Below are positions 3,641 through 36,860 of a stretch of 64,000 nucleotides of DNA, in pieces. The first letter of the stretch is position 1; the number at the start of each line of letters is the position of its first letter. Under the pieces are notes generated by a model that was not told the origin of the DNA, did no database searches, and worked only from the letters and a program-made list of their open reading frames with translations. This stretch comes from Nemertoderma westbladi. Its lineage: Eukaryota; Animalia; Xenacoelomorpha. The position numbers and the translations under genes were made by a program. The DNA lies in NCBI GenBank assembly GCA_032718475.1, contig JAUCBJ010005881.1, forward strand, positions 9,860-73,859, in the 5' to 3' direction.

Positions 3641-4930
3641 GTTAACTAAACGTTTACATAACGGCTGTGAGATAGTTAACTAAACGTTTACATAACGGCA
3701 GTGAGATAGTTAACTAAACGTTTACATAACGGCAGTGAGATAGTTAACTAAACGTTTACATAACGGCAGTGCGATAGTTAACTAAACGGTTACATAACGG
3801 CTGTGAGATAGTTAACTAATCGGTTACATAACGGCTGTGAGATAGTTAACTAAACGTTTACATAACGGCTGTGAGATAGTTAACTAAACGTTTACATTAC
3901 GGGAGTGAGATAGTTAACTAAACGGTTACATAACGGCTGTGAGATAGTTAACTAATCGTTTACATAACGGCTGTGAGATAGTTAACTAAACGTTTACATA
4001 ACGGCAGTGAGATAGTTAACTAAACGGTTACATAACGGCTGTGAGATAGTTAACTAAACGTTTACATAACGGCTGTGAGATAGTTAACTAAACGATTAAA
4101 TAACGGCTGTGAGATAGTTAACTAAACGGTTACATAACGGCTGTGAGATAGTTAACTAAACGTTTACATAACGGCTGTGAGATAGTTAAGTAAACGGTTA
4201 CATAACGGCTGTGAGATAGTCAACTAAACGTTTACATAACGGCTGTGAGATAGTTAACTAAACGGTTACATAACGGCTGTGAGATAGTCAACTAAACGTT
4301 TACATAACGGCTGTGAGATAGTCAACTAAACGTTTACATAACGGCTGTGAGATAGTTAACTAAACGGTTACATAACGGCTGTGAGATAGTTAACTAAACG
4401 TTTACATAACGGCTGTGAGATAGTTAACTAAACGTTTACATAACGGCTGTGAGATAGATAACTAAACGTTTACATAACGGCTGTGAGATAGTTAAATAAA
4501 CGTTTACATAACAGCTGTGAGATAGTTAACTAAACGTTTACATAACGGCTGTGAGATAGTAACTAACCGTTTACATAACGGCTGTGAGATAGTTAACTAA
4601 ACGTTTACATAACGGCTGTGGGATAGTTAACTAAACGTTTACATAACGGCTGTGGGATAGTTAAATAAACGTTTACATAACGGCTGTGAGATAGTTAACT
4701 AAACGTTTACATAACGGCTGTGGGATAGTTAACTAAACGTTTACATAACGGCTGTGGGATAGTTAACTAAACGTTTACATAACGGCTGTGGGATAGTTAA
4801 CTAAAGGTTTACATAACGGCTGTGAGATAGATAACTAAACGTTTACAAAACGGCTGTGGGATAGTTAACTAAACGTTTACATAACGGCTGTGGGATAGTT
4901 AACTAAACGTTTACATAACGGCTGTGAGAT
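3641..4930. repeat. Satellite, 34-bp unit (GTTAACTAAACGTTTACATAACGGCTGTGAGATA), left arm
   Basis: About 38 tandem copies ending at the GAGAT TSD of element 1. Confidence 0.97.
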
Positions 4931-5059
4931 TATAGAATTATATTCTCTAAATGCCGTGGATTTTCAAAATTTTTATTTTATTCGAATTAACTTTGCTAAA
5001 GATTACATTAAGTCCTCATTTGTATTTGCTATATCTATTTGTACGATGATTAGTCAAGT

Positions 5060-5144
5060 GGTTCAGTAGCTCAGTCGGTAGAGCGTTGGAAATTATATGT
5101 AGTGTGTATTGATTTCGAATCCTAGTAAGTGCGAATTATTTTTT
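5060..5144 (+). promoter_or_regulatory. tRNA-derived Pol III type-2 promoter-like segment in the 5' LTR (B box degenerate in this copy)
   Basis: A box/D-arm TAGCTCAGTCGGTAGAGC at 5067; GATTTCGAATCC at 5111; T6 run at 5139-5144. Confidence 0.7.
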
Positions 5145-5211
5145 GTGCAGAATTTCAACTCATTTAAATTGGCCGCTACAAATTAATTGCATTTACTCGA
5201 AGTAAGGTTAA

Positions 5212-5465
5212 CCAATGAGACTGTAGTTATTAGATTGTAACCAATGTCGTACGAGTTATATATTTGCTGGACCAATAGCTATCTTTAAAAACCTGTTAGA
5301 ACTCATAGAACAATCGAGAATTTTCTCGATTGATTGTGGCACAAATTTGGTATAAAAGGTGCGATTTCGTTCATTAGTTATCTCTCTCTATCTTTCTTTC
5401 TCAGTTACATTATTTCAGATTACATTGTTTATTGTATAATAGTTATCGTTTGATTTTGTAATAAA
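5212..5465 (+). promoter_or_regulatory. Candidate Pol II promoter and poly(A) signal of LTR 1
   Basis: CCAAT at 5212, 5241 and 5272 (about 30-bp spacing), TATAAAA at 5351, AATAAA at 5460. Confidence 0.55.
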
Positions 5466-7638
5466 AGTTAGAAATACTTGTCACATCTGCCCTTTTCTAT
5501 CTGTTTTATCATGCTTCACCACGGTGAACCCAACTGAGGGACAGGATGGCTGGCTAGACATCGGGCCGCAGCAATGAACGGGAACATCAAAGGAATGTAG
5601 ACAGGAATCAGGAATGATATCATCTTAGTTATTCGCCCATCGCCTGAAAGGTTAGACAGCGTTCGATGCCTTGCTACCTAAGTATAAGACCAAAGATCGA
5701 AGGTAGAGGTAGTGACACGCTGTACGCCTAAAATTACATCTAGGGACTGTACTGTCTTAATTCAGGAAAAAACCGCAGTAGACCTTCATATTCCTACGGG
5801 GGGGGAGAGGAGAGAGCTCAGGCAGAGATACTAGTACGCAGATAGGACGTAGGCACACCGGTACAAGGCATACACATTGGTAGGGTGCAGCAAACTGTAC
5901 GCCTAACTCTTGCTAAGTACAGGTGCGTCTGCGACTATTTGTAGTACAATGGTGTCCATTGCATCAGAACTTGTCGGCCAGGAGAGTTGCTGCGTTTCAC
6001 CTGAATTAGGATTGTACTGTTCAGGCGGTAGGGCAGTTTACGACTAGGCGCAAATAAATTGAGGCTAATTAGGGATACTAACATCTACCGTGTCCCCGCC
6101 GACATCCTGATAGGAAGTTACCAAGCCCACCTAGGTAACCAAAATTCTAGATAAGAACGCCAGGCTAGCTATTAGTAACCGTACGCCTACTGTAGTAAAC
6201 TAACACATTTCTTCTTAGTATTAGGGACCTGGTAAATTAAAATTGCCGAATTCTGGGCGTAGTATTAATCTCATGCCAGAATTTGAGTCCTGGAAATACG
6301 CAAGAGGGGAAGGAGCCTTATCATTCGTGAGTATTGGCCCTACAAGTTACAAAATTAGAATATTCGTAAAATGCACACCGTACCCAGTAATTATATATGT
6401 GAAGGAGCAAAACTGATCTTGACTGTTCAGAATTAACACACGCGCGTTAAAAATTATTTACACCTCAAAATATATAAAATTAACTTTTGTCCGTACTGCG
6501 CTTTGCCCGCTAGTTAGACATCTCCAAATCTCTGCACCTAGCTAGCGTCTCTTTCGCCCAACCATATAAATCACACCGCGGCAAAGTATACGAGCCCTTT
6601 AGTCCGTCAGCGAGTCAGCCTGATTTTAGGATTCGCTGCGCGGGATTTTGTTTTATCGAAGTTTGTCTGTTCGTAGACTGTTTTCTGCCTTACCGGTTAT
6701 AAGGGACCAATACTGCAATATATTCGCTTACTTGGAGTTTACTGTTTTGGTGAGAAGGTCGGATTTATGATTTGATTCACAAACTTTACAGTAAGATATT
6801 GCAGGTATTGTTACTGTCTCTTCGAATTAGTAGGAATGTGTTTTACTGAACTACAGTTCGGTAGGACTAAAGTTATTTGAAAATTTTGTATTTTGAGGTA
6901 AAAGTTTATATTTGATTAGCTAAGTGCTAATTTTTTGAAATAAAATTTTGATTTGAACCGCGTGTAAAATTTTTGGAATTGAATACCGGTGTTTAAAAGG
7001 ATTTAAATACCATATTGTACCGGTACAAAATTTTCGTAAAAGTAAAACCTAACTCTTTTGTTTTTCAGGATTCAGAACTCATTTCTAGACTGTAACGAGA
7101 GCAAGACCGTGTTTAGCAAGTTTGGGAGATAGATAACCCAACAACTTTGGTTGGGAAAATCGCACTTCGTCCGCAACGCTGGAAACGGAAAGGTTCACGT
7201 CCGGTTTGTATCTGGGAATCTGTTTTTCTGGAGAATTATTGGAGTGGGTGATTTCGAAAAGTTGCATAAATAAGTTAGGCATTACAGTATTAGTTAAAAT
7301 TTATTGTGGGTTCCACTGTCTCAAGTATTTATGCATTCCGTACGATTTCTTTGTTCATTGCTGAATTAGTCCGTATTATTGTATTTAATTTACCTTTTGA
7401 TAACGCATATCGTTATCCGATTTATTTGTTATAAAATTGGCCGCTAGGCTAATTTTATTATATACTTATTCCGTGACATTTATTTGCTGTAAAATTGGCC
7501 GTTTAGGCTAATTTTATCCATCTGCTATAAAATCGGCCGGTAGGCTAATTTTATATGACTGTAATTAGTACTGTTTAAATATAAATACGGTAAATTTGAT
7601 ACTTTGACACTCACTTTACTTGACTTACAACTACTGAA

Positions 7639-10600
7639 ATGAGTGACAAACAAGACTATACGAAGAATACACCTACCGACTATGACTCATGTGATGCGGA
7701 TAAGTCAGCAGCGGAAGAACTACAAGGGAAGACTCGCGAGCCTACCGAACCTACACCGTGTGCGTCACCAGTACATCCAACGGGAGTACCGGATGCCGTA
7801 GTACGAGGCGACGGCAGGACCGAGGACTTTCTAACTGTTCCGCAACCTAGATATAGGGAAACGGACATGGTAAGTTCAGTAGGAAGCCAGGAGAGCGTGG
7901 TTAGAAGCGTCGGCGGATACATGGCGCATATTACCAGGAGTATTGGAGAAGGCCAACGCATATTAGACGAGTTGACCGCTCCGATGTCTCGGTTTGAGTT
8001 CTACACCCTCCAGGTTAGAGTACAAAGTAGAGTACATAAGTCCGTAGATAACCTTATCAGTCTACAAGATCTAGCTAGACAGAGACAGGATATGGATACT
8101 CAACTTAGAATCCTCGAGAAACTAATGATCGCTAGAGAGAAACTGATTCAGTTTAAGTCGACAATTAGGCAGATACAACAGGAACAAGCGGACCAGTTGT
8201 TAGGTGAGTCAGTTTCGGACGAATTATTGCAACCCGAGGAAGAACAGGAACTGTATAGGCTGGATGGACAATTGAAACACCTGACGGATCACTTACGCAT
8301 GTGCGGCGAGGACGTCGGAGATTGGGAAACCGTGCCGGAGGCTACGAGGGAAACTTCACTCGCACAAATCGAACCGGCACCGGGAACACTAGATCAATCA
8401 CTGGTGAGTATTCGCAGCGAAATTGGCGAGGTGAGTATGGCTACGTCAGAAATTGCTCGACAACAGCAGATCTACAGACAACAACAGGAGTGGGAGGAAC
8501 AAACTCAATTGCTAATGGCACAAGCAGCAGCAGAAGAAGAGAAACTACGCGTTGCGAATGTTGCGAGAATCTCTCATCTGCAAGAACAAGCTGAGTTGGA
8601 AGCAGCCGAAATGGAAAGGTTAGAGTTGGACATTGCACAACAAGCGGCAGCGGCCGAGTTAGCGCAACGAACGGCAGCGGCCGAGTTAGAGCGACAAGCG
8701 GCAGCGGCAGCGGCAGTGGCAGCGTCCGAGTTAGAGCGACAAGGGTTAGCTTCAGAAGTGAGAACCGAAATGAAAAAACGGCAAGTAAAGGCTCAGTCAG
8801 CTATACGACAAGCGGAGTTCGAGGCGCAACAACAACAAACGGAACAACGCGAGAAAGAAGTTAAACTTCGTTTCGAACTTGAGAAGAAGGCGAGAGAATT
8901 AGCCAACGCCAAGGAAGATTTGGATCTACAAGCCCGCGACCGATCGATGAGATCTCGAGACGGACATGATTTAGACCAGATGGAGGTAAGGCACCGCCAA
9001 ATCCAGGAACGAATGAAGGAAGGTTCGATAGGAGCACCTGGACGGGAACGACAATTGGTTAAAGACTTATGTCAAAGATTCCCTCAAGTAACTCCTATGT
9101 TTGCACCAGTTACGACTAAGGAACCTGTTTTGATTGCTGGTAGTAGTAATATTTCTCCTATCCATGGTGCGACAGAACACAGGTTTGTTATTCCGGACAA
9201 GTTTACACCGCCAAGAGCAACGTCATCGCCTATTCCGAAAGTCAAGGTAAGTAACCCACCGATTACAGATCGTAGTAGTTTGTTGACCGCACCTGCACTA
9301 CTGACGACTAAACAGGTGAGTCCACCTTCGACACCAAAACCCGCCAGAACATACACGTACCCAATGACTTTTAGGCCTACAAGGCCTTTAGATTCAAACG
9401 CTGTCATTCGACCACCGAACCAGTTTACATCGCAATCTACGACTTCGAGGAAGACTTGTGAGCCTACCGAACAACGGAGACCAGTGGATACGCTACCGTT
9501 CAACCAGTTTACATCGCAATCTACGACTTCGAGGAAGACTTGTGAGCCTACCGAACAACGGAGAACAGTGGACGATGTTCCGAAACGGAATGTTAGAATT
9601 CGAACGACACAACGGACGCGAGCACGTCAGCCACCGTATCCAGGTGACAGTAGTACTTCGAGTGAATCGGATTACCCGAAACGCGAGGTATTTAGAACAG
9701 GAGCGGCTGACGAATATAAACGTGAGCGTTCAGATAACTCCTTTATCGATAATCCTCCACAAAATACACCAACACAAAAGGCGTTACAACCAACGGACGC
9801 AATTAGTACGCAACAACTCGCCGAAATAATGCGCCCAGTTGTAGACAAGTTGGCTCAGATAGAGAAACGTTTAGAAGAAACTCAAACTGATAGTTCGCGA
9901 GGTAACGAGTTCGAACACTCTAGACACCCGAAGCAGCAAAGAAAACAACCCTCGAGAAACACTTCGTATCAAGGAAAAGCGCCAAGACGAGAGAACATCA
10001 ACTCGATTGTCAACCAAGGACGCGAAACTTTGAACGTGGCCGAGGAGATAGCGAAATTCGCCGCCAGACAAGGTTTACCGGTACAACAACCACCGAAGTT
10101 TTCAGGTAACTCGAAACATTGGCACACCTTTGTGGACTACATCGAAACACAAATAGCAGCGTGCGCCTTTACATCGAGGGAGAAATTCAACTACCTGCTA
10201 CAAACGCTGACGGGAGAACCGAAACGTCTAGCGGAGACCTTTGTCGGTGTACCAGATGCCTTCGAACTAGCGTATGATCGCTTAACTTCAATTTACGGTG
10301 GCACGGTGAGTATGGCTAAGTCAGTGATAGATGAACTCTGTAAAGGGGGGGCTATAACAAAACCCGTTGACTTACTAAAATTAGCTGACGAGATTAAGAA
10401 CGCCATTACTACACTACGCTCGATTGGACAACTTGACTACGCGAACACTCCGACAGTTCTATTGAAAATAATAGGAAGATTACACCATCGACTTCGTCGG
10501 GAGTGGCGAAAGATAGAATATCAGCGAGAAGAGAGAGGCGGATTCTTGAAGTTGGAAGACGTCTACTTACTGATATCCAGAGAGGCAGTCGTTGAGACGC

Positions 10601-13600
10601 GTTCGAACTACACGGACCAACATATCGTGGCGGAGGGAATAACATTACCATCCTCGAACCGACAAAAACCCCAAACAACATCCACCAAGACGGTTACTTA
10701 CGCCACATCGACCGACACCCGACAATTTTCGGACAATAATAAGGTATCCGCACCAATTGGAACCAAACAGATCCGACAGCAACTGACCACAGATTTTAGC
10801 GGTTGCCAATATTGTGAACGGCTAGGTAAACGACATACTAGCCATAAACTGAGAGGTTGTCGACTATTCTGCGAATTGAACTCGGAGGAACGACGATTAC
10901 AAATACGACCATTGGACTCTTGTTGGCGGTGTACGCTACATGGACATGTCTGTAAGGACTGCCCAAATACAGACACCTGTCCTTCTTGTGGACGCAACCA
11001 CGACGGCTTGCTACATACAGACAGTCATACGCCGACCAAACGCTTCACCAGGGAACACCCGGAAGCTGCAGCAAGATGCAACACAGCATATAAGGGTCGA
11101 GAGTCGAAAACAACACCGACATTCGTGACGCACATTAGAGATTGTTTCTCGGAACAATCAGGATCGTCAGATGAAGAGTCGGAAGACGAAGACGTTTACT
11201 TTGATACTGGAGACGAACAACCATCGATTGCGCTTCTGACGCCTGATCAACTAAAGGGGTTTAGTATAATACCTGTCAAGATTACTGGCATCAAAGGGAG
11301 CAAGAGGATCTACGCTATCCTGGATTCAGCCTCATCTCATAGCTACGTGGATGAGAAAGTAGCTGATGTTGTGACGGATCTCCGACAAGGTAAGAACGTC
11401 AGTTACACCGTAAGTAGTATGCATGGACAACGTGCAATACCAGTGACACGAGTTAAGTTGAACTTAGACACTCTTCTTCCGAAATCGCAACATAGCGAAA
11501 AGGAGAGGTCTTTGTTACCCTTTAAGGATTTAACCTTTGCGGCCACAAAGGACTTTAGTAACCTACTAGGTCCTGTCCCAGAACAATCCTTGGAGGACCA
11601 TAAGTACTTCAGACACCTTGGTGTACCTGAATGTCCTGTCAACTATAGGTCGGTAGCAATGCTGATCGGGACAGATCAATTCAACCTACATCAAGTGTGG
11701 GAAACCAGACCATCGGCAGTCGTAGCGGGAAACGCATACGCCTGTAGAACGCCGATAGGGTGGTATACTCGAGCGCCTGTGCGCACACTGGATATAAGTG
11801 ACGAGGAAGACGATATACAAAGTACATGTAGTTTATTAACTACAACTTCGACTCATTCCTTTTCACACGACGTAGACTATACTACACTACATTCGACAAA
11901 ACATGACACGACGTGTGTAGCGAGTATGATAAGTCACAAGGAGCAGCTAATCCACCAGGTGAGTTTAGAACTTGGGAAGAAGACGAGTCAGCCAGAGATT
12001 CCATCGACGACAGATGATAACGCCGGAAGACTTGCGAGCCTTTCTACACCAGACATATCGCCAGACACGTTACCAGACGTATCACCAGACGCGTTACTAG
12101 ACGGTCAACCAGACATTTTGCCAGACATATCACAAAATGTTCTACCAGACACTAGTAACATATTGACAAATAGTAAAGCCGCAGTTTCTCTATTGGAGCG
12201 GCCTTCTACAGACAATCAACCAGACACGTTACCAGACGTATCGCCAGACGCGTTACTAGACGGTCAACCAGACGTTTTGCCAGACACGTCACTAGATATT
12301 TCGCCGGATGTTCCGCGAAACATTTTACCAGACATGTCACAAAATGTTCTACCAGACACTAGTAACATATTGACAAATAGTAAAGCCGCAGTTTCTCTAT
12401 TGGAGCGGCCTTCTATTGACAAACAACCAGACGCGTTACTAGACGGTCAACCAGACGTTTTGCCAGACATGTCACTAGATATTTCGCCGGATGTTCCGCG
12501 AAACATTTTACCAGACATGTCACAAAATGTTCTACCAGACACTAGTAACATATTGACAAATAGTAAAGCCGCAGTTTCTCTATTGGAGCGGCCTTGTATT
12601 GACAAACTACCAAATTTGACACACTTGAGCAACAATAAGCACAGTGAAACCTCATGTATTACAGATGTGGGTAGTACCTACGTAAATGTAAATACAGGTG
12701 TTACTTTGCGCTCAAGAGACATACCAAACTTGCAACCTATGGTGAAACCTGGGATTAATATCGGCAGAAAAATAAGTTTACCGAAACCCACTGACCCCAT
12801 AGAGTTCAAACCACCATTAACGATCGACTTACAAAGTACTGACAACCAAGGTAAGAAAACAAGGAAGGACAAATTACTTGTAGACCCGGACGGATCAACA
12901 GTCAACAAGGGAATACTTACCGGCGGACCCGTGGGCCCTTCTAGTAAATCAAAACCTTCCAAATTCTCCATTGACTTACCTGATGACGTCACAAATACTT
13001 ACGTCGACCGCATTGTAAACCTAACAGATTCTTGGACAAACGCTTGCCGAAAATTAGCGTGGATTGTACGTTTTGTACAATACGTTAAAGGCAAACGCGA
13101 CTTTACACGTCGACTTACATTGACTGAGATTGACAGGTGTGAAATTAAATTAATTCGCCATTACCAACTGCGATATTTCGCACGCGAATTCACATCTATA
13201 AATCAAGGTCAACCAATCAAGTCGTCACCAATATTGAGTTGGAGTCCGATAATTTATAATGGCTTAATTTGTCATAAATCTCGGCTTCAAAACATTGACT
13301 TTAACACAAACTTTAGATACCCAATAATAATATCGCAGCATCACGAACTACAACGTTCAATGATACTGGACGCACATTTACATCTGAAACACGCTGGAAG
13401 ACACCACTGTCTTTCCTACTTACATACAAGATTTGTATTAATTAGACCCAGTAAAGCGTTAAGTTCAGTGACACGTACGTGTATTATTTGTAAAAAGGTA
13501 CATTCTAGAATAGGTACCCAAGAAATGAGTGAACTTCCACAAGCACGACTTCAAGCATTCAGACCACCTTTTACAGAGACTGGAATTGACTGCTTTGGTC

Positions 13601-14511
13601 CCATACATACGAAACGTGGACGTATACTAGTAAAACGCTGGGGACTGATTTTCACATGTATGTCCAGTAGGGCAGTTCATATTGAACGTGTGATGGATCT
13701 TTCCACCAACGCGTTTATACTAGCATTGCGGCGATTTATCGCTAGACGCGGACTAGTGAAATGCTTGTACTCAGACCAAGGGACAAACTTTGTTGGTGCT
13801 CGAAATGAGATTGCTAGAGCCTTTAAGAAATTAGATCATGATCAAATCTCAAACGAACTACGTCCTTACAAGATTGTTTGGAAGTTTAATCCTCCAGATA
13901 GTCCATGGAGAGGCGGAGTCTGGGAGAGATTGATTAGATCTATAAAGACAGCCATGGCAAAGGTCATTCCAGTAAACCACATTTTGACAGACGACCAACT
14001 GACAACACTGTTTGTTGAAATCGAGGCAATACTAAATACTAGACCAATAGTATTAGTACCCGATGACAAACAATCCCAGTTTGCTTTAACACCGGCACAC
14101 CTGCTTATGCAGGCACCGACTACTTTAACGCCTATTTCTTTTCCAACAGAAGGCGATAGCTACGGTAGAAAAGCGTGGAAAATCAGGCAACTACTAGCTA
14201 ACAAATTCTGGGAAATATGGCAAAACCATTATTTGCCCTCTATTTCTGCCAGAACAACATGGTACAATAACACCCGCGCATTAAAGCCGGGAGATCACGT
14301 GCTGTTAGCGGAAGTGAATCTAAAAAGACGCTTCTGGATAACAGGTGTAATTTTAGCCACACATCCATCTATGGATGGAGTGACAAGAACTGTGACAGTA
14401 CGGACAATTGACGGTCGTACAGTTGACAGACCGACTCAACGTCTCGTACTTCTTGAAGAGACTCGTAACGAGTCTGGAGACTACAAATCTCCAACTAATG
14501 TTAGTAAATAA
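7639..14511 (+). CDS. BEL/Pao polyprotein Gag-protease-integrase lacking RT and RNase H (2290 aa)
   Basis: Gag PPKFSG...W..F; knuckles CQYC..H..C, CWRCTLHGHVCKDC, CPSCGRNHDGLLH; protease AILDSASSHSYV; IN HLHLKH...CIIC, TGIDCFGP, YSDQGTNF, GGVWERLIRSIK; no YxDD or DAS motif. Confidence 0.93.
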   Translation: MSDKQDYTKNTPTDYDSCDADKSAAEELQGKTREPTEPTPCASPVHPTGVPDAVVRGDGRTEDFLTVPQPRYRETDMVSSVGSQESVVRSVGGYMAHITRSIGEGQRILDELTAPMSRFEFYTLQVRVQSRVHKSVDNLISLQDLARQRQDMDTQLRILEKLMIAREKLIQFKSTIRQIQQEQADQLLGESVSDELLQPEEEQELYRLDGQLKHLTDHLRMCGEDVGDWETVPEATRETSLAQIEPAPGTLDQSLVSIRSEIGEVSMATSEIARQQQIYRQQQEWEEQTQLLMAQAAAEEEKLRVANVARISHLQEQAELEAAEMERLELDIAQQAAAAELAQRTAAAELERQAAAAAAVAASELERQGLASEVRTEMKKRQVKAQSAIRQAEFEAQQQQTEQREKEVKLRFELEKKARELANAKEDLDLQARDRSMRSRDGHDLDQMEVRHRQIQERMKEGSIGAPGRERQLVKDLCQRFPQVTPMFAPVTTKEPVLIAGSSNISPIHGATEHRFVIPDKFTPPRATSSPIPKVKVSNPPITDRSSLLTAPALLTTKQVSPPSTPKPARTYTYPMTFRPTRPLDSNAVIRPPNQFTSQSTTSRKTCEPTEQRRPVDTLPFNQFTSQSTTSRKTCEPTEQRRTVDDVPKRNVRIRTTQRTRARQPPYPGDSSTSSESDYPKREVFRTGAADEYKRERSDNSFIDNPPQNTPTQKALQPTDAISTQQLAEIMRPVVDKLAQIEKRLEETQTDSSRGNEFEHSRHPKQQRKQPSRNTSYQGKAPRRENINSIVNQGRETLNVAEEIAKFAARQGLPVQQPPKFSGNSKHWHTFVDYIETQIAACAFTSREKFNYLLQTLTGEPKRLAETFVGVPDAFELAYDRLTSIYGGTVSMAKSVIDELCKGGAITKPVDLLKLADEIKNAITTLRSIGQLDYANTPTVLLKIIGRLHHRLRREWRKIEYQREERGGFLKLEDVYLLISREAVVETRSNYTDQHIVAEGITLPSSNRQKPQTTSTKTVTYATSTDTRQFSDNNKVSAPIGTKQIRQQLTTDFSGCQYCERLGKRHTSHKLRGCRLFCELNSEERRLQIRPLDSCWRCTLHGHVCKDCPNTDTCPSCGRNHDGLLHTDSHTPTKRFTREHPEAAARCNTAYKGRESKTTPTFVTHIRDCFSEQSGSSDEESEDEDVYFDTGDEQPSIALLTPDQLKGFSIIPVKITGIKGSKRIYAILDSASSHSYVDEKVADVVTDLRQGKNVSYTVSSMHGQRAIPVTRVKLNLDTLLPKSQHSEKERSLLPFKDLTFAATKDFSNLLGPVPEQSLEDHKYFRHLGVPECPVNYRSVAMLIGTDQFNLHQVWETRPSAVVAGNAYACRTPIGWYTRAPVRTLDISDEEDDIQSTCSLLTTTSTHSFSHDVDYTTLHSTKHDTTCVASMISHKEQLIHQVSLELGKKTSQPEIPSTTDDNAGRLASLSTPDISPDTLPDVSPDALLDGQPDILPDISQNVLPDTSNILTNSKAAVSLLERPSTDNQPDTLPDVSPDALLDGQPDVLPDTSLDISPDVPRNILPDMSQNVLPDTSNILTNSKAAVSLLERPSIDKQPDALLDGQPDVLPDMSLDISPDVPRNILPDMSQNVLPDTSNILTNSKAAVSLLERPCIDKLPNLTHLSNNKHSETSCITDVGSTYVNVNTGVTLRSRDIPNLQPMVKPGINIGRKISLPKPTDPIEFKPPLTIDLQSTDNQGKKTRKDKLLVDPDGSTVNKGILTGGPVGPSSKSKPSKFSIDLPDDVTNTYVDRIVNLTDSWTNACRKLAWIVRFVQYVKGKRDFTRRLTLTEIDRCEIKLIRHYQLRYFAREFTSINQGQPIKSSPILSWSPIIYNGLICHKSRLQNIDFNTNFRYPIIISQHHELQRSMILDAHLHLKHAGRHHCLSYLHTRFVLIRPSKALSSVTRTCIICKKVHSRIGTQEMSELPQARLQAFRPPFTETGIDCFGPIHTKRGRILVKRWGLIFTCMSSRAVHIERVMDLSTNAFILALRRFIARRGLVKCLYSDQGTNFVGARNEIARAFKKLDHDQISNELRPYKIVWKFNPPDSPWRGGVWERLIRSIKTAMAKVIPVNHILTDDQLTTLFVEIEAILNTRPIVLVPDDKQSQFALTPAHLLMQAPTTLTPISFPTEGDSYGRKAWKIRQLLANKFWEIWQNHYLPSISARTTWYNNTRALKPGDHVLLAEVNLKRRFWITGVILATHPSMDGVTRTVTVRTIDGRTVDRPTQRLVLLEETRNESGDYKSPTNVSK

Positions 14512-15043
14512 TTAGGAGTTTACAAATAGATTTCCACGTACCTGTACACTGTAGTAAAGACAGCGGTAGAATTCCATTGTCTTTATATGTGAACATTGAG
14601 GGTAATACCCTTATGTATCACATAGGAGCGGGATTTGTAGGTATAAGAAATGGAATTATACTTGGAACTCACAATATTGAGACATTTTCGAAACTTTAGA
14701 CAATCCATTTGGATTTGAAAAAATTTTAAAATTTTCTCCAGTGAATAGATTTCAGGGTACAGTCGGGTGGAACTTAAAATTAGAGAAACAAGAGAGGAAG
14801 ACTTGCGAGCCTTTCTTAAAATTTTAATTAAATTTTACACGGTCTTGTTTCAATAAGTTACGTCAAAATAGACTTCCCTATATTTATTACTAATTCTTGA
14901 TTGCTTATTTTCTGATAATAGTTTGGGATCAAAAAGTGAGTATTTTAGACTCACAGCCAGTTTAGCCCAAATTCGTTTTTTATTTCGGCAAAAATTTTAG
15001 ATAAGAAGCAGCGTGTCATTAAAGAAACCCTAGATCTTAGGCT

Positions 15044-16666
15044 ATGGGTAGGAGGTTAGAGCGTTGTCGAGCCAAAAAAGGCAGACGAAAACTCTCACGT
15101 CTCCTCACAACTAACTACAAACTCTGTTGTAATCCCTCTAGTAGTAATGATTATGTAACTACACCTCTAATTATGGAGAGGATGCGTGTATTGGGCTATT
15201 ACGTCACCTCCAAGAGCGGTCTTACAATATTATTTAGCAATAGAGTCGTCAGTGAATGTTTGCTTAATAACAAACGTATCGTGGAGATTACGGATGAATC
15301 ACGGCAGACGCGCGCACCTATCGGTCACCTTGGTGATGATTTCGAAGTAACGACTACGATCACTGACGATCCTTTAGAGGAACTTCTTGAGATAGAAAGG
15401 AACCTCCCGAAGAAATCTCAGACGGAGATTCGACAACTTGAAGCAACAGATGCTATAGTTTGTATACAACCTTCAGAAACCTACCAACCCATAGATCCAG
15501 ATGATTATGATTATAGTGTGGGAGGAAGCGCTCGACCAATTGGAGATCTTATATAAGAACGAGTGTGGTACCCTGCCAATACGATGTGTGGTAAATGTGG
15601 CGTCGCTGGACATCATTCGACCAAGTGCAGTGGAAAGCACATTACTACGACTCAACTAATCTGTGGATGGTGTGGAGATCAAGGGTCTCATACCTTTTAT
15701 ACTTGCTGGAGATTTATGGCTCAATGTACTTATTGCAATATAAAAGGGCATCGAGCATCTGAATGCCAACTAAGAGACATACCCTATGAACACGAATCTG
15801 TAAAACTCGTGAGAAAACTATTCGATGAGTGGGAAGATTTAGCCGACGAACACGTATCGGCACAAAGAAGACGATTTCCGATGAGGGCGCATCTTGGATT
15901 TTGGGCGGTAAATCCCCAAACGATGATGTCGGAAGGATACATCTCCGCTATGCCCCAATATGACGAACTTATCGAGGTAGTCGATATTTTGCCTCACGAC
16001 AGTCGATTCCGAGTAGTGCGTGAGTATCTATTACAGATTCACCCAGACAACAAGAACACGTGGAATTTTCAGAAAGTCGTAAATCGTATCACGTATGGTG
16101 AATTTGATCGTTTTCGAACTGAAAAGCGGAATAAAGGAGCTTGGTTAACCGTCGCATGGGCGTACCGAGCCGCGTTTTACCACAAACGTATACGAGCGAG
16201 CGTATTCGAGGAAGAGGAGATCCTAGAGGCGACAAATATACCAGCCACTCCGGTTGCGCCGTCTGCACGTCACACTCGGGAGGACGGGCAGGGTAGGATC
16301 ATAAGGGTCCAGAAAGTTAGCCAACAATTAAAGAAGTCTATTAATATAGAAGAACGCAAGGGAGTTGAGCCGACCATTCGAATTACTCGGGATACGGTAT
16401 CGCTTCCTAGAGAACCAACAGGAGGATCGGGACATACACCAGCTGATCAAAAGGGGGCGCAAGCTACTCTTGGGTCTGTGTCGTCCGCTTCCCGCGCATT
16501 CCCAGACGTTTTACCAACTGTAGTGACAACTGATCGGTCACGAGGAATCGGTCGAGGTTTTGGGATGCCAAATAGACGAATTTGCGAGGAAATAGTCGCA
16601 CCGTCTCCCAACGTCCAAACGAAACCAGTGACTCGCCCCACGAGTCCCATATCGCGAGCAAAGTGA
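15044..16666 (+). pseudogene. Accessory ORF of element 1, triple zinc-knuckle protein with one in-frame TAA (15554-15556)
   Basis: ORFs 15044-15556 and 15563-16666 share a frame; CGKCGVAGHHSTKC, CGWCGDQGSHTFYTC, CTYCNIKGHRASEC; start codon uncertain. Confidence 0.75.
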
Positions 16667-17502
16667 CCTGTGCGCAGTTTTCGAGGACGCGGCAGGGCTC
16701 GATCCACTAAGCGATAAAAGGGAGGGCAAGGGTGGACGGAAGACTCGTGAGCCTTTCTTGTGAATTTGTGATTTATTTGAATTATATGTTTTATATTTAA
16801 TTAGTAAGTTTTGTATTCTGGAAGAACTCATATTTAGTAAGATTTATATTTAGTAAGAATTTATATTTTGCAAGATTTATATTTTATATTTGTGATTATT
16901 CCGAACTTATGCAATTTATATTGTTCCGAATACTATGCAATTTATATCTTATAAGCAGTATTTGTATTTACAGTGAAATAGAAAGTAAGAGTAGATGGAA
17001 GACTCGTGGGCCTTTCTTATAGTTTCATTTGTAAAGTGTTATATTTGTATTTAGAAAGTTTTATAGTTAGAAAGTTTTGTACTTAGAAAGACTCATATTT
17101 GTAATTATTCCGAACTTATGCAATCTACATTTAGGCACGAAAGTATTTGTAATTATTTGAATTTATGCAATATTTGAGATGCAATAGTAGATGGAAGACT
17201 CGCGAGCCTTTCTTATGATTTCATTTATTTGTATTTGTAATTGTTTGAATTTATGCAATATTGAGATGCAATAGATTTATATTGGTGAATTTAATTTAGA
17301 TTTATATTGTACTTACTTAGTAAAGCCTTAAATATGTAAAGTTTGAATTTGTAATTATTTTGTATCGAATTATTATGTAGAAAGGAAGTATTGCTTGAAA
17401 TTTAATTTGTAAATATGTAAGTACGCGACGCCCTAAGTATTCTATAATTTGATTGATTATTGGTGAAAACCGTATATTTTATGCACGATAATATCCTGTT
17501 TT

Positions 17503-17512
17503 CATGGAGCGG
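17503..17512 (+). other. Polypurine-tract-like site of element 1 (CATGGAGCGG)
   Basis: Immediately precedes the 3' LTR; resembles CTGGGTGCGG at the same position in element 2. Confidence 0.65.
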
Positions 17513-19410
17513 TATAGAATTATATTCTCTAGATGCCGTGGATTTTCAAAATTTTTATTTTATTCGAATTAACTTTGCTAAAGATTACATTAAGTCCTCA
17601 TTTGTATTTGCTATATCTATTTGTACAATGATTAGTCAAGTGGTTCAGTAGCTCAGTCGGTAGAGCGTTGGAAATTATATGTAGTGTGTATTGAGTTCGA
17701 ATCCTAGTAAGTGCGAATTATTTTTTGTGCAGAATTTCAACTCATTTAAATTGGCCGCTACAAATTAATTGCATTTACTCGAAGTAAGGTTAAGCAATGA
17801 GACTGTAGTTATTAGATTGTAACCAATGTCGTACGAGTTATATATTTGCTGGACCAATAGCTATCTTTAAAAACCTGTTAGAACTCATAGAACAATCGAG
17901 AATTTTCTCGATTGATTGCGGCACAAATTTGGTATAAAAGGTGCGATTTCGTTCATTAGTTATCTCTCTCTATCTTTCTTTCTCAGTTACATTATTTCAG
18001 ATTACATTGTTTATTGTATAATAGTTATTGTTTGATTTTGTAATAAAAGTTAGAAATACTTGTCACATCTGCCCTTTTCTATCTGTTTTATCATGCTTCA
18101 CCACGGTGAACCCAACTGAGGGACAGGATGGCTGGCTAGACATCGGGCCGCAGCAATGAACGGGAACATCAAAGGAATGTAGACACGAGACAACCCGCAA
18201 TATCATCTTAGTTATTCGCCCATCGCCTGAAAGGTTAGACAGCGTTCGATGCCTTGCTACCTAAGTATAAGACCAAAGATCGAAGGTAGAGGTAGTGACA
18301 CGCTGTACGCCTAAAATTACATCTAGGGACTGTACTTTCTTAATTCAGGAAAAAACCGCAGTAGACCTTCATATTCCTACGGGGGGGAGAGGAGAGAGCT
18401 CAGGCAGAGATACTAGTACGCAGATAGGACGTAGGCACACCGGTACAAGGCATACACATTGGTAGGGTGCAGCAAACTGTACGCCTAACTCTTGCTAAGT
18501 ACAGGTGCGTCTGTGACTATTTGTAGTACAACGGTGTCCATTGCATCAGAACTTGTAGGCCAGGAGAGTTGCTGTGTTTCACCTGAATTAGGATTGTACC
18601 GTTCAGGCGGTAGGGCAGTTTACGACTAGGCGCAAATAAATTGAGGCTAATTAGGGATACTAACATCTACCGTGTTCCCGCCGACATCCTGATAGGAAGT
18701 TACCAAGCCCACCTAGGTAACCAAAATTCTAGATAGGACGCCAGGCTAGCTATTAGTAACCGTACGCCTACTGTAGTAAACTAACACATTTCTTCTTAGT
18801 ATTAGGGACCTGGTAAATTAAAATTGCCGAATTCTGGGCGTAGTATTAATCTCATGCCTGAATTTGAGTCCTGGAAATACGCAAGAGGGGAAGGAGCCTT
18901 ATCATTCGTGAGTATTGGCCCTACAAGTTACAAAATTAGAATATTCGTAAAATGCACACCGTACCCAGTAATTATATATGTGAAGGAGCAAAACTGATCT
19001 TGACTGTTCAGAATTAACACACGCGCGTTAAAAATTATTTACATCTCAAAATATATAAAATTAACTTTTGTCCGTACTGCACTTTGCCCGCTAGTTAGAC
19101 ATCTCCAAATCTCTGCACCTAGCTAGCGTCTCTTTCGCCCAACCATATAAATCACACCGCAGCAAAGTACACGAGCCCTTTAGTCCGTCAGTGAGTCAGC
19201 CTGATTTTAGGATTCGCTGCGCGGGATTTTGTTTTATCGAAGTTTGTCTGTTCGTAGACTGTTTTCTGCCTCACCGGTTATAAGGGACCAATACTGCAAT
19301 ATATTCGCTTACTTGGAGTTTAATGTTTTGGTGAGAAGGTCGGATTTATGATTTGATTCACAAACTTTACAGTAAGATATTGCAGGTATTGTTACTGTCT
19401 CTTCGAATTA
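17513..19410 (+). repeat. 3' LTR of element 1 (1898 bp)
   Basis: Direct repeat of 4931-6829, followed by TSD GAGAT. Confidence 0.95.
17642..17726 (+). promoter_or_regulatory. tRNA-derived Pol III promoter-like segment in the 3' LTR (intact A and B boxes)
   Basis: TAGCTCAGTCGG at 17649, GAGTTCGAATCC at 17693 with tRNA-like spacing, T6 at 17721-17726. Confidence 0.75.
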
Positions 19411-19428
19411 GAGATAGATAACTAAACG
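19411..19428. repeat. 18-bp remnant of the 34-bp satellite between the two retrotransposons
   Basis: GAGATAGATAACTAAACG matches monomer variants seen near 4451 and 4824 and contains both inner TSD copies. Confidence 0.9.
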
Positions 19429-20608
19429 TGTAAAGGCTTTTGCGGAATTAGCCGGTTATTTTCCCGGTAAAGTACTCTGTAGTTGGTTTAACAGGCATAA
19501 AAGGCCGTGTCCTTACTGTACTGGTGTTTTAGAGGACATAAAAGTCATTTCTTCTGTATGTGTACTTTAGCGGACATAATTCGCAATTTTATGACGCAAT
19601 GCGCCAAATCCTCTGTAAACAGTGTAGCTACCATGACGACGGCTAACAGCTGATGCTGTACACGTGGAGCCTTTTCTTTGTTCTCTGTTCCTTCTTTGTT
19701 CGGTCGACCAATCAGAGTGTTTTTGCCTCTGTGTTAGAGATTGTATATAGAAACTCGTGGAGTTGAGTCAGTATGTGATTTTGTCCACAGCCTACAACAC
19801 AGGCTTTGGAACCTCCGTGTTTCAGTCTTTAGCCCAACATTAGTAGGCTTAATTATAGAACGTATATCTGTTATCAATCCAAACTCAATAATCATAACTT
19901 ACTCACTCACTCATAACTTAACAAACCATTCATAACTTAACATTTTACTGCTTTTACTGTCGGTTATTCATTATATTTGTTGATGGAATATTATATTTGG
20001 AATACTGATAAATAATCAGACACCCCAATCTTCTTGATATACTAAAGGTTAGAGAGACCGGTTACATATAACGATTGCGACTTACATTAAGTGGTTTGAA
20101 GTGAATCTAATGCTATTTTATAGGCCCTACATGTATTGTCTGTTGTTCTCCTTATATGTGACTAAAATTAATGAAGGTCGGCAGATCAGTGTGCAGCATT
20201 GTGCAGTATTGTGTATGATTGTGATTGATAACAAAGCATCTCCTAAAGAATGCGCCATATACGTGAATCTATAGCCATTCCGTTGTGTCTAGTTTAAGTC
20301 ATAACTCTGTTTATATATTTAAAGCGCCACGTCCTAAAGGAACTGTTAATATTTCCCGAAAGTGAATAATATTTGTCAGAGATTATATATATTACGATCA
20401 GTCGAATAATACAGTAGGCCTACCCCGCAATACGGTTAGGCTTCCGAATCCAGTCTCCCGGGTATATCCAGCGGGTGAATGATCGCGCATAGACTGGCTT
20501 CGGCTAATGTAGTGTATCAAATACTTGTCATAGGCTAAAGATGATCTATCATCTAAAAGACATCCCAATTTGGCAGGTTAAACTGCTAAAGGTCTGAAAA
20601 CGCGAACA
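19429..20608 (+). repeat. 5' LTR of element 2 (1180 bp)
   Basis: Matches 36861-38040 with about 11 substitutions counted by eye. Confidence 0.96.
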
Positions 20609-20890
20609 ATAACAGATATACCTTCTGTATTGCAGTAGGCAATAACGCTGAAGTACCGGACAACCGGTACCTAGTAGGCCTGACTACCTAACCACCCGGA
20701 CCGGTACCTACAGCAGTACAGGTACATCAGTATTATTCGATTGTGAAATTGTATACCGGTAGGCTGTTTAAGAGATTAGGGACTGTACACCCCTTGTTTC
20801 TTTTGGAGCTTACTTATTTCTGTCAGTTTTATTTATTTGTAGGCCAGTATTGAGCAGAAGGCGTGTAAGCCTGCTCAGATTGTACAGACA

Positions 20891-21455
20891 ATTTGTAGGC
20901 TAGACTGTTGTCTGACTGTTGTTAAGTCTGAAGGGACTGTAGTGTGTGTAGAGCATATGTCCGAAAAAGTACTAGTTAGGAAAGTAGGGGCTGCCAGTGC
21001 TGTGAGGTGAACCCCCCAAGAAAGAATAAGTCGTACTACTCGGTTAGAACGCATACTAACTAACCATTTCGGAGTCTGCATATATTGTAGTTTATTTAGG
21101 CTTGATAGTAGTCTGCCAGCGTTTGGTCTGTACCTTGTTTGTGTAGTTTGTATGGGTAGCGTAATAGTTCTTATTTAGATAATTTGTAGGCTGGATTTTG
21201 TCTGACTGTTGTTAGGTCTTGAGAGATTTCGGTGTGTGTAGAGTGTATGTCCGATAAAGTGCCAGTTGGGAACGTAGGGGCTTCCAGAGCTGTGAGGTAA
21301 ACCCCCTCGAAAGTATAAGTCGTACTACTGGGTTAGAACGCATACTAACTAACCATTTTGGAGTCTGCATATACCGTAGTTTGTTTGGGCTTGACAGTAG
21401 TCTGTCAGTATTTGGTCTGCATTTTGTTTGAGTAGTCTGTACGCGTAGCGTAATA
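20891..21455 (+). repeat. Tandem duplication (~291-bp period) in the 5' leader of element 2
   Basis: ATTTGTAGGCT...GTCTGACTGTTGTTA...GGTTAGAACGCATACTAACTAACCATTT occurs twice, starting at 20891 and 21182. Confidence 0.85.
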
Positions 21456-22791
21456 TTTATTATTCAGAGTTTATGCGATTATTCGCAACATTCATATCCC
21501 CAAGTTTATTCCTACAGTAATTGTGCTTGTTATATATACCGTTATAGTTAAACTAACCCCGGTACTACATCAGGGCTGCTTGGCGTAGGTAAAGACTGGT
21601 GATTTTGTGCCCCGGTCACTCCAGCAGATACCGTGGTTCTTTTAGCTGTTCAAGTATTTTTAACTACTGATTATTTGTTGTATAAGTACTTGTACCTAAT
21701 TTAGGGTTTAGTGTACAGTGCTTTCCGAAGGTGATTAGTGTGTAGGCAGTATATTTGTGTTGTAAAGTGGTTAATAGGCACGTTGGTTCTGGTAGACCGC
21801 GGTAATTAACTTCTAGGTAGGAACACTCCGTGATACATAACGTAGTACTTATAGCGCCACGGCTATAAGTCGTCAGACGGTGGTATTTTTCTATCTGGAC
21901 AACGCAGTATATTTACTACTACTTATTATTTTCAAATACCGTAGTACCCTGTCCTTTGTAATAACCAGATATTCTAACCCTTTGTTAGGCTGGTTAGTAA
22001 ACTTCTTGTAAAACTACCCTAAAAATTTGTACTTGTAAATTTTTGTGTTTATTTAGAGATTGTAATCTCACCTCGAATTGTACGTAATTTGTAGTATTAA
22101 GTAACTTAGGTAAATTAGAATTATTTGTTTTAGTGTCCAACAAGTAGCACTTCACTGAGAGCGCACAGCTTCTGTGTAGTGACTCCCCCCAGAAATAATA
22201 ACATTTATTTCAAATATTGACAAAACCCATTTAACGGGTAAATATATTATAAATCAACTCAAACCGATTTATAAAATAGTAGGCCTGCCATACAACAATT
22301 AGGTCTCAAGATCAGTTAGACTACTGCTCAAATAACGGTAATCAAGTAAAGCAAAGTAACCAAGTAACCCTAAAAATTCAGAAATTCAATTATTCTAAAA
22401 TAATTGATATACTATTTACAATAGGCTTATTATATTTATTTCTATAAATTTAGGCTGAAATTATACCGGTATTCTGTAATTAATTCTAGTCCATAATTAT
22501 ACTTATATATACTATAAGTGTAAGCTGTATACCGGTATTCACGATAGGCCTATTATATATTTATATATACTTGTGCTGAAATTACATACCGGTATTCTGT
22601 GACTAATCTAGTCTGTGACAATACTTATATATATATACTATAAGCATACCGGTATTCTAATATATTATATATATATTACGCTACACTGAGTAGCAGTATC
22701 GGTAATTAATTACTAGGCTAACAGTGATACTGAATTACTAGACTTGCTTAAACTGTAATATAGCAGTAGGCATTCAACTGTACAAACCAAC

Positions 22792-30998: not shown

Positions 30999-32551
30999 TT
31001 TTACTTAGTAGAACGTTATTTTAGCGATTATTTAGTAGATTAGTGCAATATATATTCGGGTTTATTACTTAATTACTTATATATTATATATTTAGTGCGA
31101 CGGCGAGAAATAATTATTTTTCTCTTTCCTTACTGTCCGTATTACATTACAAATACGTAATTACAGTAAGATGAAATGTCCGTACTTATTAAAGTACAAT
31201 AAAGCTCCTACTATATTCAAGTATTATTGGTAAAGTAGAGTATTAGGAATGCAAAATTCAGATCCTCGTGTCTCGGCTAAACCAAGCTCTGGGTAGACCT
31301 TGGAAACGACTTGCCTCTTCTCACTGACATTGCTTCGTGCGATATTGCTCTCATACCGTATAGTAAATAATACATATAGTAGCGTGATGTCCTTTTAACA
31401 GTAGCGTATAACGCAAAATAAATCTGTTAAACCCTTTGACCATCTGTAATTCTAGTCGATTAAGATATCGCGGCACCCACCGATATACTTGAAAGACAAA
31501 TTCTAGAATCAGTGGTTAACGTCCCCAGACAAGTTCTGGAATAAACTGGTGCCCATCCTAAATATTAATTATTAATATTTATAAAATCTGTCGAAATTGT
31601 AGATCCTTTAAAATTCTAGTCGATTAAGATATCGTAGCACTTACCGATACTCTTAAAAGGTCAAAATTCCTAGAATCAAGGATCCCAGTCCCCAGACACG
31701 TTCTGGAATAAAATTGTGTCTATTTAACATTAAATAATAAAATTTACGGGAATAAATTTAAATTCATATATTTCAATGAATTTAATAAATTGTCATTTTA
31801 TACAATTTATAACATTCCCAAAATTCCATTAATTAATAGATCATGGGAGCGGAGATTCACTCTATTAAGTGTATTTGTGTGCGAGAATCTCCAATATATA
31901 GTCAATAGCCGATAAAATTCATAAAATCATATATAGAGAGGATATTGACAATTAAAGAATTACTATTAAATAGCATCCCAGATCTGTATGCATGAGAATT
32001 ACCCTAATTCTACCGCTAGCTTTCCATAATGTCACCATGGCAACAACCACGCTAGAATTAGAAGTGAGTTAAAAGAACAATAAAGGCTTGCCCCATTGAA
32101 TAGCATAAGGAATAAAATAGCACATTGCTAGTATCCCAGGATACCCAATAATAACGTGGCATTCTGGAAGGCACTGACTAAAGGACAAATGGCCCGAATA
32201 TGTGCGGTTTGTGACAGTTGTGTGGAATTTGTGCGTTTATAGGTGAATGTTACTACTAAAGTGTGTTTACAGTAGCGAGTCGCAATTGTGAAAGTAGCCC
32301 TAACTCTCCAGTAAGAACCTGAAGTATATCTAAGCCTTTGGGACGGACGGTGGAGTGACTCGTGCTGGTTGTTGTGGTCGTTGTGCAGCTACGACGTTGG
32401 CGATAGGCACATCGGCGAAAGTACACCAGCGCTGAAGATCTTACACTGTCCGGGGGCAAAAGAGGGGTAGGCAGCGACGCCCGCTAGCCTAATATATAAA
32501 CTCATTATAATATTGATAAACTCATAGCAGATATGACTGAGTTGATAGAAG

Positions 32552-36537: not shown

Positions 36538-36860
36538 GAGCTGCTGTCCTAAGACACGCCCTAAAGGCTGTTAGACCTCGCTCCACTGAAATTGATATCG
36601 ATCAACCAGGTACCTCGACCGGCGGATACAGCGATCGTAATCCTAAACCTTCTGATGCAATTGTATTGCACCCTTCACCCAGGAGCTACAGCCCTCCTAG
36701 TAAAGTGGCTCGCCCCAAAGAGAAAAGGACTCTTGCTAACCTCAAAAAACTGCGTAAACGCCGTCCGCGTAAGAAAGACTAACTGTTTAGAGTATTTTTA
36801 TATTTTAGAAACTGTGATTGGTTATATTTTATAGACTTAAATCCCATTTTCTGGGTGCGG

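Follow-up and report, generated by a model that had tools for sequence, protein, structure and literature searches.

Can an LTR retrotransposon lacking its own reverse transcriptase (RT) spread as a family, and which of its proteins does it then keep? The question is raised by a 2290-aa ORF in a 64,000-nt stretch of Nemertoderma westbladi DNA (contig JAUCBJ010005881.1, hereafter the window), located in a 14.5-kb BEL/Pao LTR element (element 1, 4931-19410; Table 1). With a probability of roughly 0.7, we read this ORF as the Gag-protease-integrase polyprotein of a BEL/Pao family devoid of RT and RNase H, which is likely present in high copy number, lost these domains long ago and likely borrows RT from an RT-bearing relative.

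Table 1. Features of element 1 and its surroundings (window coordinates)
Feature	Position	Strand	Remarks
Left target site duplication (TSD) GAGAT	4926..4930	+	Within 34-bp satellite, array 3637-4930
5' LTR, element 1	4931..6829	+	1.9 kb, non-canonical TA...TA termini
Leader, element 1	6830..7638	+	Without TGG-type tRNA primer site in its first 30 nt
Gag-protease-linker-integrase single ORF	7639..14511	+	Open 2290 codons, 2290 aa
Dispersed imperfect palindrome GGAAGACTYGYGRGCCT, 17-mer, 8 copies	7727..17212	+	7727, 9449, 9533, 12025, 14796, 16738, 16997, 17193
BEL/Pao Gag core DUF1759, aa 821-958	10099..10512	+	Domain search, E 1e-10
Aspartic protease, catalytic D1229	11251..11766	+	Profile 41 bits (element 2: 47 bits)
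Post-protease spacer, likely decayed pre-RT region	11767..12024	+	End lies close to where the pre-RT RL..L motif canonically falls
X3/X4 variant contigs leave/rejoin window	12019..12025	+	Extra segment, where RT would begin
Tandem repeats, Pro/Asp/Leu/Ser-rich, three units	12047..12612	+	TRF periods 183/207, 12/24-nt subunits, copy-number variable
Unique low-complexity linker	12613..12990	+	130 aa, without RNase H tail (profile search)
Pre-integrase region, HHCC, DDE core, DUF5641	12991..14463	+	476 bits (element 2: 453)
Accessory ORF2, several zinc knuckles	15044..16666	+	One stop (15554-15556), looks private to window copy
PPT-position tract	17495..17512	+	13/18 nt same as element 2
3' LTR, element 1	17513..19410	+	
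Right TSD GAGAT	19411..19415	+	5 bp
Element 2, RT-bearing BEL/Pao, same deep clade	19429..38040	+	TG...CA, TSD AAACG, 1.18-kb LTRs

The first-pass annotation of this locus had described the ORF and its DDE triad as intact, and both descriptions were confirmed: the frame is open throughout, and D1984, D2046 and E2096 are in place, as are the HHCC residues H1913/H1918/C1948/C1951. The HMM scan that it had proposed recovered Gag, protease and integrase domains, DUF1759 and DUF5641 among them, and no RT. Element 1 thus combines an LTR pair and a TSD with a DUF1759 Gag followed by zinc knuckles (~10810-11030), a protease and a DUF5641-bearing integrase on one ORF, as in BEL/Pao, while the RT and RNase H (Peptidase_A17) that autonomous members carry between protease and integrase are missing. 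The protease triad reads D-S-A instead of D-x-G, alanine occupying this position also in 3 of 92 pattern-matched homologues. The integrase is homologous to BEL/Pao integrases (476 bits) and clustered with that of element 2 (SH-aLRT 100, in a quick tree with long branches); its best identity to any database protein was 41%. Close protein relatives of element 1 were found among none of 8 candidates and none of 7990 sequences, and a separate search gave no match under 1e-30. A metagenome search returned a single locus, a canonical RT-bearing element (L001, 34%), and a viral contig search none in 10. The top protein matches of the linker that were checked were unrelated proteins, matched through PD-rich repeats.

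The RT-RNase H profile gave element 2 a score of 605 bits, whereas its best result over the six frames of element 1 was -2.5 bits; there the RT core, RNase H and RNase H tail profiles all remained at shuffle level. Remote RT homology, regarded in the first-pass annotation as what would overturn its reading, was found neither with clade profiles nor in Pfam and PDB sequence searches. The interval between RTPIGWY (11746) and DSWTNACR (13027) measures 1281 nt, against 2334 nt for its equivalent in element 2, which carries YMDD at 28095 and GDAS at 28632; the estimates of ~1.25 and ~2.3 kb were therefore sound. Likewise, the TSD and the absence of RT/RNase H homology agree with the earlier view that this element moved without an RT of its own.

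It had also been proposed that RT and RNase H were replaced by an in-frame repeat linker. Three tandem PDALLDGQPD units are indeed present (12085, 12244, 12427), as are three copies of NSKAAVSLLERP (12169, 12376, 12559), but the repeats fill only ~565 of the ~1220 nt that separate protease from pre-integrase; a decayed post-protease spacer of 77-86 aa and the 130-aa unique stretch make up the rest. "Replaced" overstates the case, since the repeats may have expanded later, within a spacer that RT loss had left behind. The linker frame contains no stop in 399 codons, while the two alternative frames have 26 and 31, and its chance of staying open is ~1e-10 at local composition.

The 5' LTR displays TATAAA at 5351, AATAAA at 5460 and a tRNA-like A/B-box stretch (~5067-5121) in which neither ARAGORN nor Rfam called a tRNA. 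The two LTRs differ by 26 substitutions and 9 gap columns (K2P 0.0139, or 1.4%), and this copy is young, its family apparently abundant. Both LTRs end in TA...TA and not in the canonical TG...CA, in the one copy examined. In both elements, a scan of the first 30 nt after the 5' LTR for TGG revealed no primer site of this type. Self-priming of element 1 through an 11-bp helix (6830-6840 / 5787-5797) was considered and discarded, its best score being reached by 20 of 100 shuffles (not significant). The eight 17-mer copies compare with 0.10 expected, none of 100 shuffles reaching eight, and the motif is absent from element 2. Element 2, whose copy here has stops in gag and integrase, was rejected as the parent of element 1: integrase identity is 37.7%, and neither LTRs nor internal regions share nucleotide similarity beyond low-complexity Ala-codon patches and the PPT-position tract. 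ORF2 is related to the element 2 ORF at 34819-36537 (27% over 226 aa, E 2e-18).

Five sequencing runs from four studies yielded contigs over the internal region of element 1, some at depths of thousands. Four runs covered 24-30 of its 30 bins, the share running on into unlike sequence being 0-0.01. Single X3 contigs reached depths of 12,362 (integrase) and 10,304 (ORF2), against 15-75 for rare X3 variants, contig depth not being copy number. Depth was lower across 10044-11471. The passage from protease to spacer was bridged at depths of 1636 (X1) and 1540 (X3); for linker to integrase, bridging contigs came from X4 (405 nt, 12796-13200, depth 228) and X1 (12972-13074, depth 700). Four studies, with two organism labels among them, contain the linker and its integrase junction in divergent forms and at high depth. 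At 3-8%, the contigs are further from the window than the two LTRs are from each other, which implies several lineages older than the window insertion. The statement that all linker expansions keep the frame held for most of them: of the six length variants that could be fully accounted for, five did so (two perhaps being one event). Joints with 22-29 nt sides at 17-mer copies were left uncounted as possible alignment artefacts.

Among the differences listed (40 of 120 and 40 of 622), all six in the protease were synonymous (30% expected, p ~0.001). The spacer showed 4 synonymous differences out of 15, the linker 6 out of 14, and the pre-integrase and integrase region 4 out of 9, with no synonymous bias in the latter relative to the same 30%. 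The suggestion that selection keeps the integrase translated finds no support in these differences, the signal residing in the protease.

The first-pass annotation had proposed a search for independent insertions with the same RT-less junctions. Contigs share these junctions on the protease-spacer and linker-integrase sides; at 12019/12025, contigs of X3 and X4 have an extra segment. The only X4 contig over 11936-11991 (depth 888) departs at 12019 and continues for 286 nt to its end, a second one joins the window at 12025, and none of the contigs listed bridges the window-type junction. RT-bearing other copies, though unlikely, could be accounted for by this segment. The family would then be autonomous, with RT-RNase H located here; the repeat linker would be a swollen spacer between RNase H and integrase, and the window copy or its sub-lineage would be an in-frame deletion derivative, perhaps produced by 17-mer recombination. 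The break is at the canonical RT start, coincides exactly with a 17-mer copy and is where the dominant X4 contig departs; moreover, long RNase H-integrase spacers exist (P0003: RNase H end 1771, integrase start 2255), and the BEL/Pao cluster P0040 has clean in-frame RT/RNase H deletions with RT-bearing siblings. We nevertheless consider this explanation improbable, since the region that should precede RT has decayed. The spacer ends at a distance of 94 aa, against 96-104 aa for the RL..L motif in three quarters or more of 51 homologues. It scored -1.6 bits in the pre-RT motif comparison, a value that 6 of 300 shuffles reached. The pre-RT profile gave 50 bits on element 2 and 13 bits or more on 43 of 49 held-out homologues but had no match in element 1; only 7 of the 49 fell below 15 bits, at least two of these being deletion forms. 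The X4 contig is itself ~92% identical to the window over 11784-12019, with the conserved pre-RT motifs decayed there, and 11 of the 15 spacer differences are non-synonymous.

The integrase might alternatively be a passenger in an RT-less family amplified in trans, its frame open through youth and selection on Gag-protease, with the helper providing integrase as well. This would fit the restriction of the selection signal to the protease, and semi-autonomous families with Gag-protease only are known (PMC9744471). We give it still less credit: pre-RT decay implies an old loss, yet the integrase scores on a par with that of element 2, and linker indels 3' of the protease, relevant to the integrase alone, mostly keep a frame without stops. 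Bridged divergent contigs, the synonymous bias in the protease and the frame-keeping variants together make an amplified, long RT-less family likelier than a single post-insertion deletion. LTRs so similar mean that an intact ORF requires no post-insertion selection, but a single deletion or assembly artefact is largely refuted on the linker-integrase side by the depth and divergence of that junction, and a domesticated host gene would be atypical in having LTRs, a TSD and a satellite insertion site, so that this group of explanations is highly improbable.

Because RT is absent while the capsid, protease and integrase gene is unbroken, the RT-less family likely spreads by borrowing only RT from a relative. 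Full-length RNA would be translated into one polyprotein, for which the linker need only stay in frame, and integrase would be carried into the particle with Gag. Gag and protease of element 1 may co-assemble with a helper Gag-Pol, the presumed source of RT/RNase H, and the palindromic 17-mers could promote RNA dimerisation or packaging. If its own integrase processes its TA...TA ends, this would explain why integrase was kept and RT was not. A bolder version can be put forward tentatively: a long-established and successful parasite for RT alone, namely a giant BEL/Pao lineage that outsources just this step, with an integrase co-adapted to TA...TA ends, eight palindromic dimer or packaging signals winning helper RT, and a clade priming without tRNA.

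Element 1 shares with BEL/Pao (Belpaoviridae) elements such as Sinbad (PMC554778) and element 2 a single ORF with DUF1759 Gag and zinc knuckles, protease, HHCC-DDE integrase and DUF5641, besides LTRs and a 5-bp TSD. It differs from elements such as Sinbad by the missing RT/RNase H, 1.9-kb LTRs, the missing tRNA primer site, the accessory knuckle ORF and its termini (TGT...TCA in Sinbad). AtRE1, a plant element, also has TA...TA LTR termini, in a survey whose non-canonical ends were mostly from Copia (bioRxiv 10.1101/137141). The assumption that non-autonomous elements keep at most gag proved too narrow in view of BEL/Pao Gag-protease-integrase deletion forms and of mouse IAP 1-delta-1, a gag-pol fusion. 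The wheat elements RLG_Sabrina_SA, RLG_WHAM and RLG_Quinta, and TR-GAG, are semi-autonomous: like element 1 they are RT-less and high-copy with intact Gag or Gag-protease, and they are mobilised by an autonomous partner; however, they are plant Gypsy-type and also lack the integrase that is intact in element 1 (PMC9744471; PMC11302176). IAP 1-delta-1 resembles element 1 in its in-frame internal deletion creating a fusion ORF, which aids retrotransposition in cis and outnumbers the helper among new insertions, but it is an ERV, the deletion takes parts of gag and pol, and it derives from a near-identical helper (PMC6466679). The BEL/Pao deletion proteins P0040 (six 1486-aa sequences, 1-6 aa apart), P0037, P0166 and P0260 have protease and integrase in one frame without RT/RNase H. 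Unlike element 1, P0040 and P0037 retain an RNase H tail. P0040 in addition keeps some of the pre-RT region and has RT-bearing siblings. These proteins look recent and are scattered over the integrase tree, away from element 1. The mosquito elements of PMC3286476 and PMC7642597 are non-coding or defective and differently laid out. No description of an amplified RT-less Gag-protease-integrase BEL/Pao family was found in the literature searched, which took in few subscription journals and not Repbase. The RT-borrowing family is likely an uncommon variant among dependent retrotransposons, Gag-protease-integrase deletion forms having already been seen in other BEL/Pao lineages.

Described semi-autonomous LTR families kept Gag, with or without protease, and dropped both RT and integrase. 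A long-lived family lacking RT/RNase H alone would mean that RT can be provided in trans, with integrase retained in cis or on account of end specificity, and the symmetrical CA-to-TA end change would offer a direct in vitro route to integrase-end co-evolution. Since RT-based classifiers cannot place RT-less families, such families may be under-counted in animal genomes. Finally, elements 1 and 2 suggest that an unsampled BEL/Pao clade exists whose members are 14-19 kb long, carry accessory knuckle ORFs and have no tRNA primer site.

The single Gag-PR-linker-IN frame of element 1 (ORF1), described in the first-pass annotation as intact, was open throughout its 2290 codons. The interval between the protease (PR) and the pre-integrase region covered 1281 nt, compared with 2334 nt in element 2, the adjoining RT-bearing BEL/Pao element, where YMDD and GDAS motifs lay within it, as previously reported. 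Positions assigned earlier to the three repeat units and to the HHCC and DDE residues were also recovered; the repeat units made up less than half of the linker. Pfam identified DUF1759, Integrase_H2C2 (below cut-off) and DUF5641 on ORF1, and no match to RT or Peptidase_A17.

The absence of RT from element 1 withstood a remote-homology search with profiles and Pfam. A profile built from 70 RT-bearing homologues matched element 1 only at positions 4-361 (weakly after about 290) and 908-1409. The RT-RH profile reached 605 bits on element 2 and at best -2.5 bits in the six frames of element 1, where the RT-core, RH and RH-tail sub-profiles did not rise above shuffle level: 27, 35 and 121 of 300 shuffles, respectively, scored as high. 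Judged from sequence, the post-protease spacer (11767-12024) may be a decayed pre-RT region: it scored -1.6 bits against a pre-RT sub-profile (6/300 shuffles as high) and displayed a motif resembling RL..L, roughly at the canonical distance. A tighter pre-RT profile found no match on element 1, 50 bits on element 2 and a median of 69 among 49 held-out homologues. Since this signal was gone while PR and IN core profiles scored comparably in elements 1 and 2 (41 vs 47 and 241 vs 212, respectively), the loss of RT looks old.

The PR-linker-IN stretch was present in five of the seven listed sequencing runs (X1 to X5; X1 and X2 are one sample, which may be the source of the window), from four studies and two organism labels, with contigs covering all 30 bins in X1-X3 and 24 of them in X5. 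Single X3 contigs reached depths of 12,362 and 10,304, and rare variants 15-75; contig depth is no copy number, and we infer from these values a family of the order of hundreds of copies. Contigs differed from the window by about 3-8%, exceeding the difference between the element 1 LTRs (26 substitutions, 9 gap columns, K2P 0.0139). Contigs ran from PR into the spacer (X1, depth 1636; X3, depth 1540) and from the linker into pre-IN (a 405-nt X4 contig, depth 228, 12 differences; an X1 contig, depth 700). No listed contig spanned 12019-12025. There, one X4 contig over 11784-12019 (depth 888) departed from the window for its final 286 nt, another entered at 12025 with 117 loose letters, and X3 contigs had both loose ends. 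The family might have siblings carrying RT in an extra segment, the break being located where RT would start; however, this X4 contig matches the apparently decayed spacer at about 92% identity and its listed differences there are mostly non-synonymous, which makes such siblings unlikely. Searches of proteins and of loci turned up no close relative. Element 1 is BEL/Pao-derived and likely belongs to an amplified RT-less family.

Two other kinds of variants were observed. An 86%-identical low-depth variant (region 11700-11865) that parts from the window sequence near position 11865 in X1, X2 and X3 points to an older subfamily whose spacer differs. X1 contigs at depth 130-420 displayed further internal deletion forms (9554-11470, 9562-12661, 14817-17091 and 15115-16144); some, with ends at copies of the 17-mer described below, may be artefacts.

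Among the 40 of 120 contig differences listed, synonymous changes accounted for 6/6 in PR (expected 0.30), 4/15 in the spacer, 6/14 in the linker and 3/5 in pre-IN. A further 18 ORF1 rows (from 40 of 622 listed, after setting aside 3 duplicates and the 19 that fell outside ORF1), mostly sites private to the window copy, included seven synonymous changes (IN, 1/4). Five of the six fully accounted length variants, others being impossible to sum, were in frame (+12 twice, -3, -12 and -354 net), and the frame-breaking one had depth 4.7. The two +12 variants are possibly one event; counting four of five in frame, the chance is about 0.045 by hand calculation.

The 17-mer GGAAGACTYGYGRGCCT occurred in eight copies, all on the + strand of the element 1 internal region (0.10 expected), some in coding sequence, in two reading frames, and others in non-coding DNA; one copy begins at 12025. 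It was absent from element 2 and the remainder of the window, and a de novo scan of element 2 yielded no comparable repeated signal, its best result being a 14-mer present at four sites. The 17-mer is imperfectly palindromic, with a weak hairpin of -0.4 to -2.0 kcal/mol but a homodimer of -8 to -24. Core changes were all C>T or A>G, with no G>A among the eight copies; because they keep G-U pairs, the sequences favour a role in pairing at the RNA level, for instance in dimerisation or packaging. CpG decay is a possible source of the core pattern, and the 17-mer could possibly be a recombination hot spot.

Features of the window
Feature	Positions	Remarks
34-bp satellite array flanking both elements	3637-4930, 38041-38452	
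Element 1 LTRs	4931-6829, 17513-19410	window self-comparison; TSD GAGAT
tRNA-like A-box/B-box stretch	5067-5121	upstream part of LTR; box pattern also matches 17649-17703 (3' LTR)
ORF1	7639-14511	
ORF2 of element 1	15044-16666	zinc knuckles; interrupted by one stop in this copy
Element 2	19429-38040	18.6 kb; TG...CA ends, TSD AAACG
Element 2 accessory ORFs, long, 3' of IN	32549-34741, 34819-36537	first: 730 aa, no Pfam match
22-bp satellite and AT-rich 150-160-bp repeats	38557-41470, 47944-49334	large inverted pair; arms of 287 nt with 98% complementarity, separated by 7.4 kb
500-aa frame	50558-52060	RVT_1 and DUF6451; likely non-LTR retrotransposon fragment

Element 1 was inserted in the 34-bp satellite, and TA was found at the start and end of both its LTRs. 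Reverse transcription copies each LTR end to both LTRs; the parent thus carried TA...TA ends and integrated cleanly. No TGG primer site followed the 5' LTR. The tRNA-like LTR stretch, which received no call from ARAGORN or Rfam, may by analogy with 5S in Cassandra be a captured Pol III promoter. ORF2 is a homologue of the second accessory ORF of element 2 (27% identity over 226 aa), and its Atlas look-alikes were multi-knuckle proteins, all <0.9 and leads only.

Element 2 starts 18 bp past the end of element 1 (19411-19428 between them). Two different large BEL/Pao elements lie in the same orientation in one satellite array; a shared target preference is possible. A quick IN tree (67 rows) grouped them with SH-aLRT 100, both on long branches, at an IN identity of only 37.7%, and their LTRs displayed no similarity. 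No TGG primer site was found in element 2; 12 nt at 20610-20621, one base past its 5' LTR, are perfectly complementary to 19862-19873 within the LTR (0/100 shuffles). Tf1 primes by self-priming, and this analogy hints at a similar process in element 2.

Of 120 listed homologues (BLAST), two lacked both RT and RH and two had only partial RT; in a further protein search, 2/13 proteins with both PR and IN lacked RT. Among the 15 of 27 members listed, the cluster of P0040, a homologous BEL/Pao protein, held six near-identical 1486-aa Gag-PR-IN proteins without RT/RH, an independent in-frame RT deletion, alongside two that carry RT sequence. Of the six, five lay on ENA contigs of 5.1-5.5 kb and the sixth was from Logan. 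These homologous sequences indicate that the Gag-PR-IN layout recurs in BEL/Pao as simple deletions. Published work describes semi-autonomous Gag or Gag-PR families in wheat (PMC9744471; PMC11302176), 15 sugar-beet families whose pol domains have partly decayed (bioRxiv 10.64898/2026.03.01.708851), a cis-acting gag-pol fusion in IAP 1-delta-1 (PMC6466679) and, as in element 1, TA...TA LTR ends in AtRE1 (bioRxiv 10.1101/137141). No RT-less BEL/Pao family of this type was described in the literature searched, of limited coverage; its apparent age and amplification, its ends and its repeated signal set element 1 apart.

We propose, with a probability of about 0.7, that element 1 RNA would be translated as one polyprotein co-assembling with the Gag-Pol of an RT-bearing relative, that this putative helper would reverse-transcribe the RNA in trans, and that the DNA would be integrated by the element's own IN. 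The linker would be tolerated provided the frame stays open, and the TA...TA ends are a putative reason for keeping IN.
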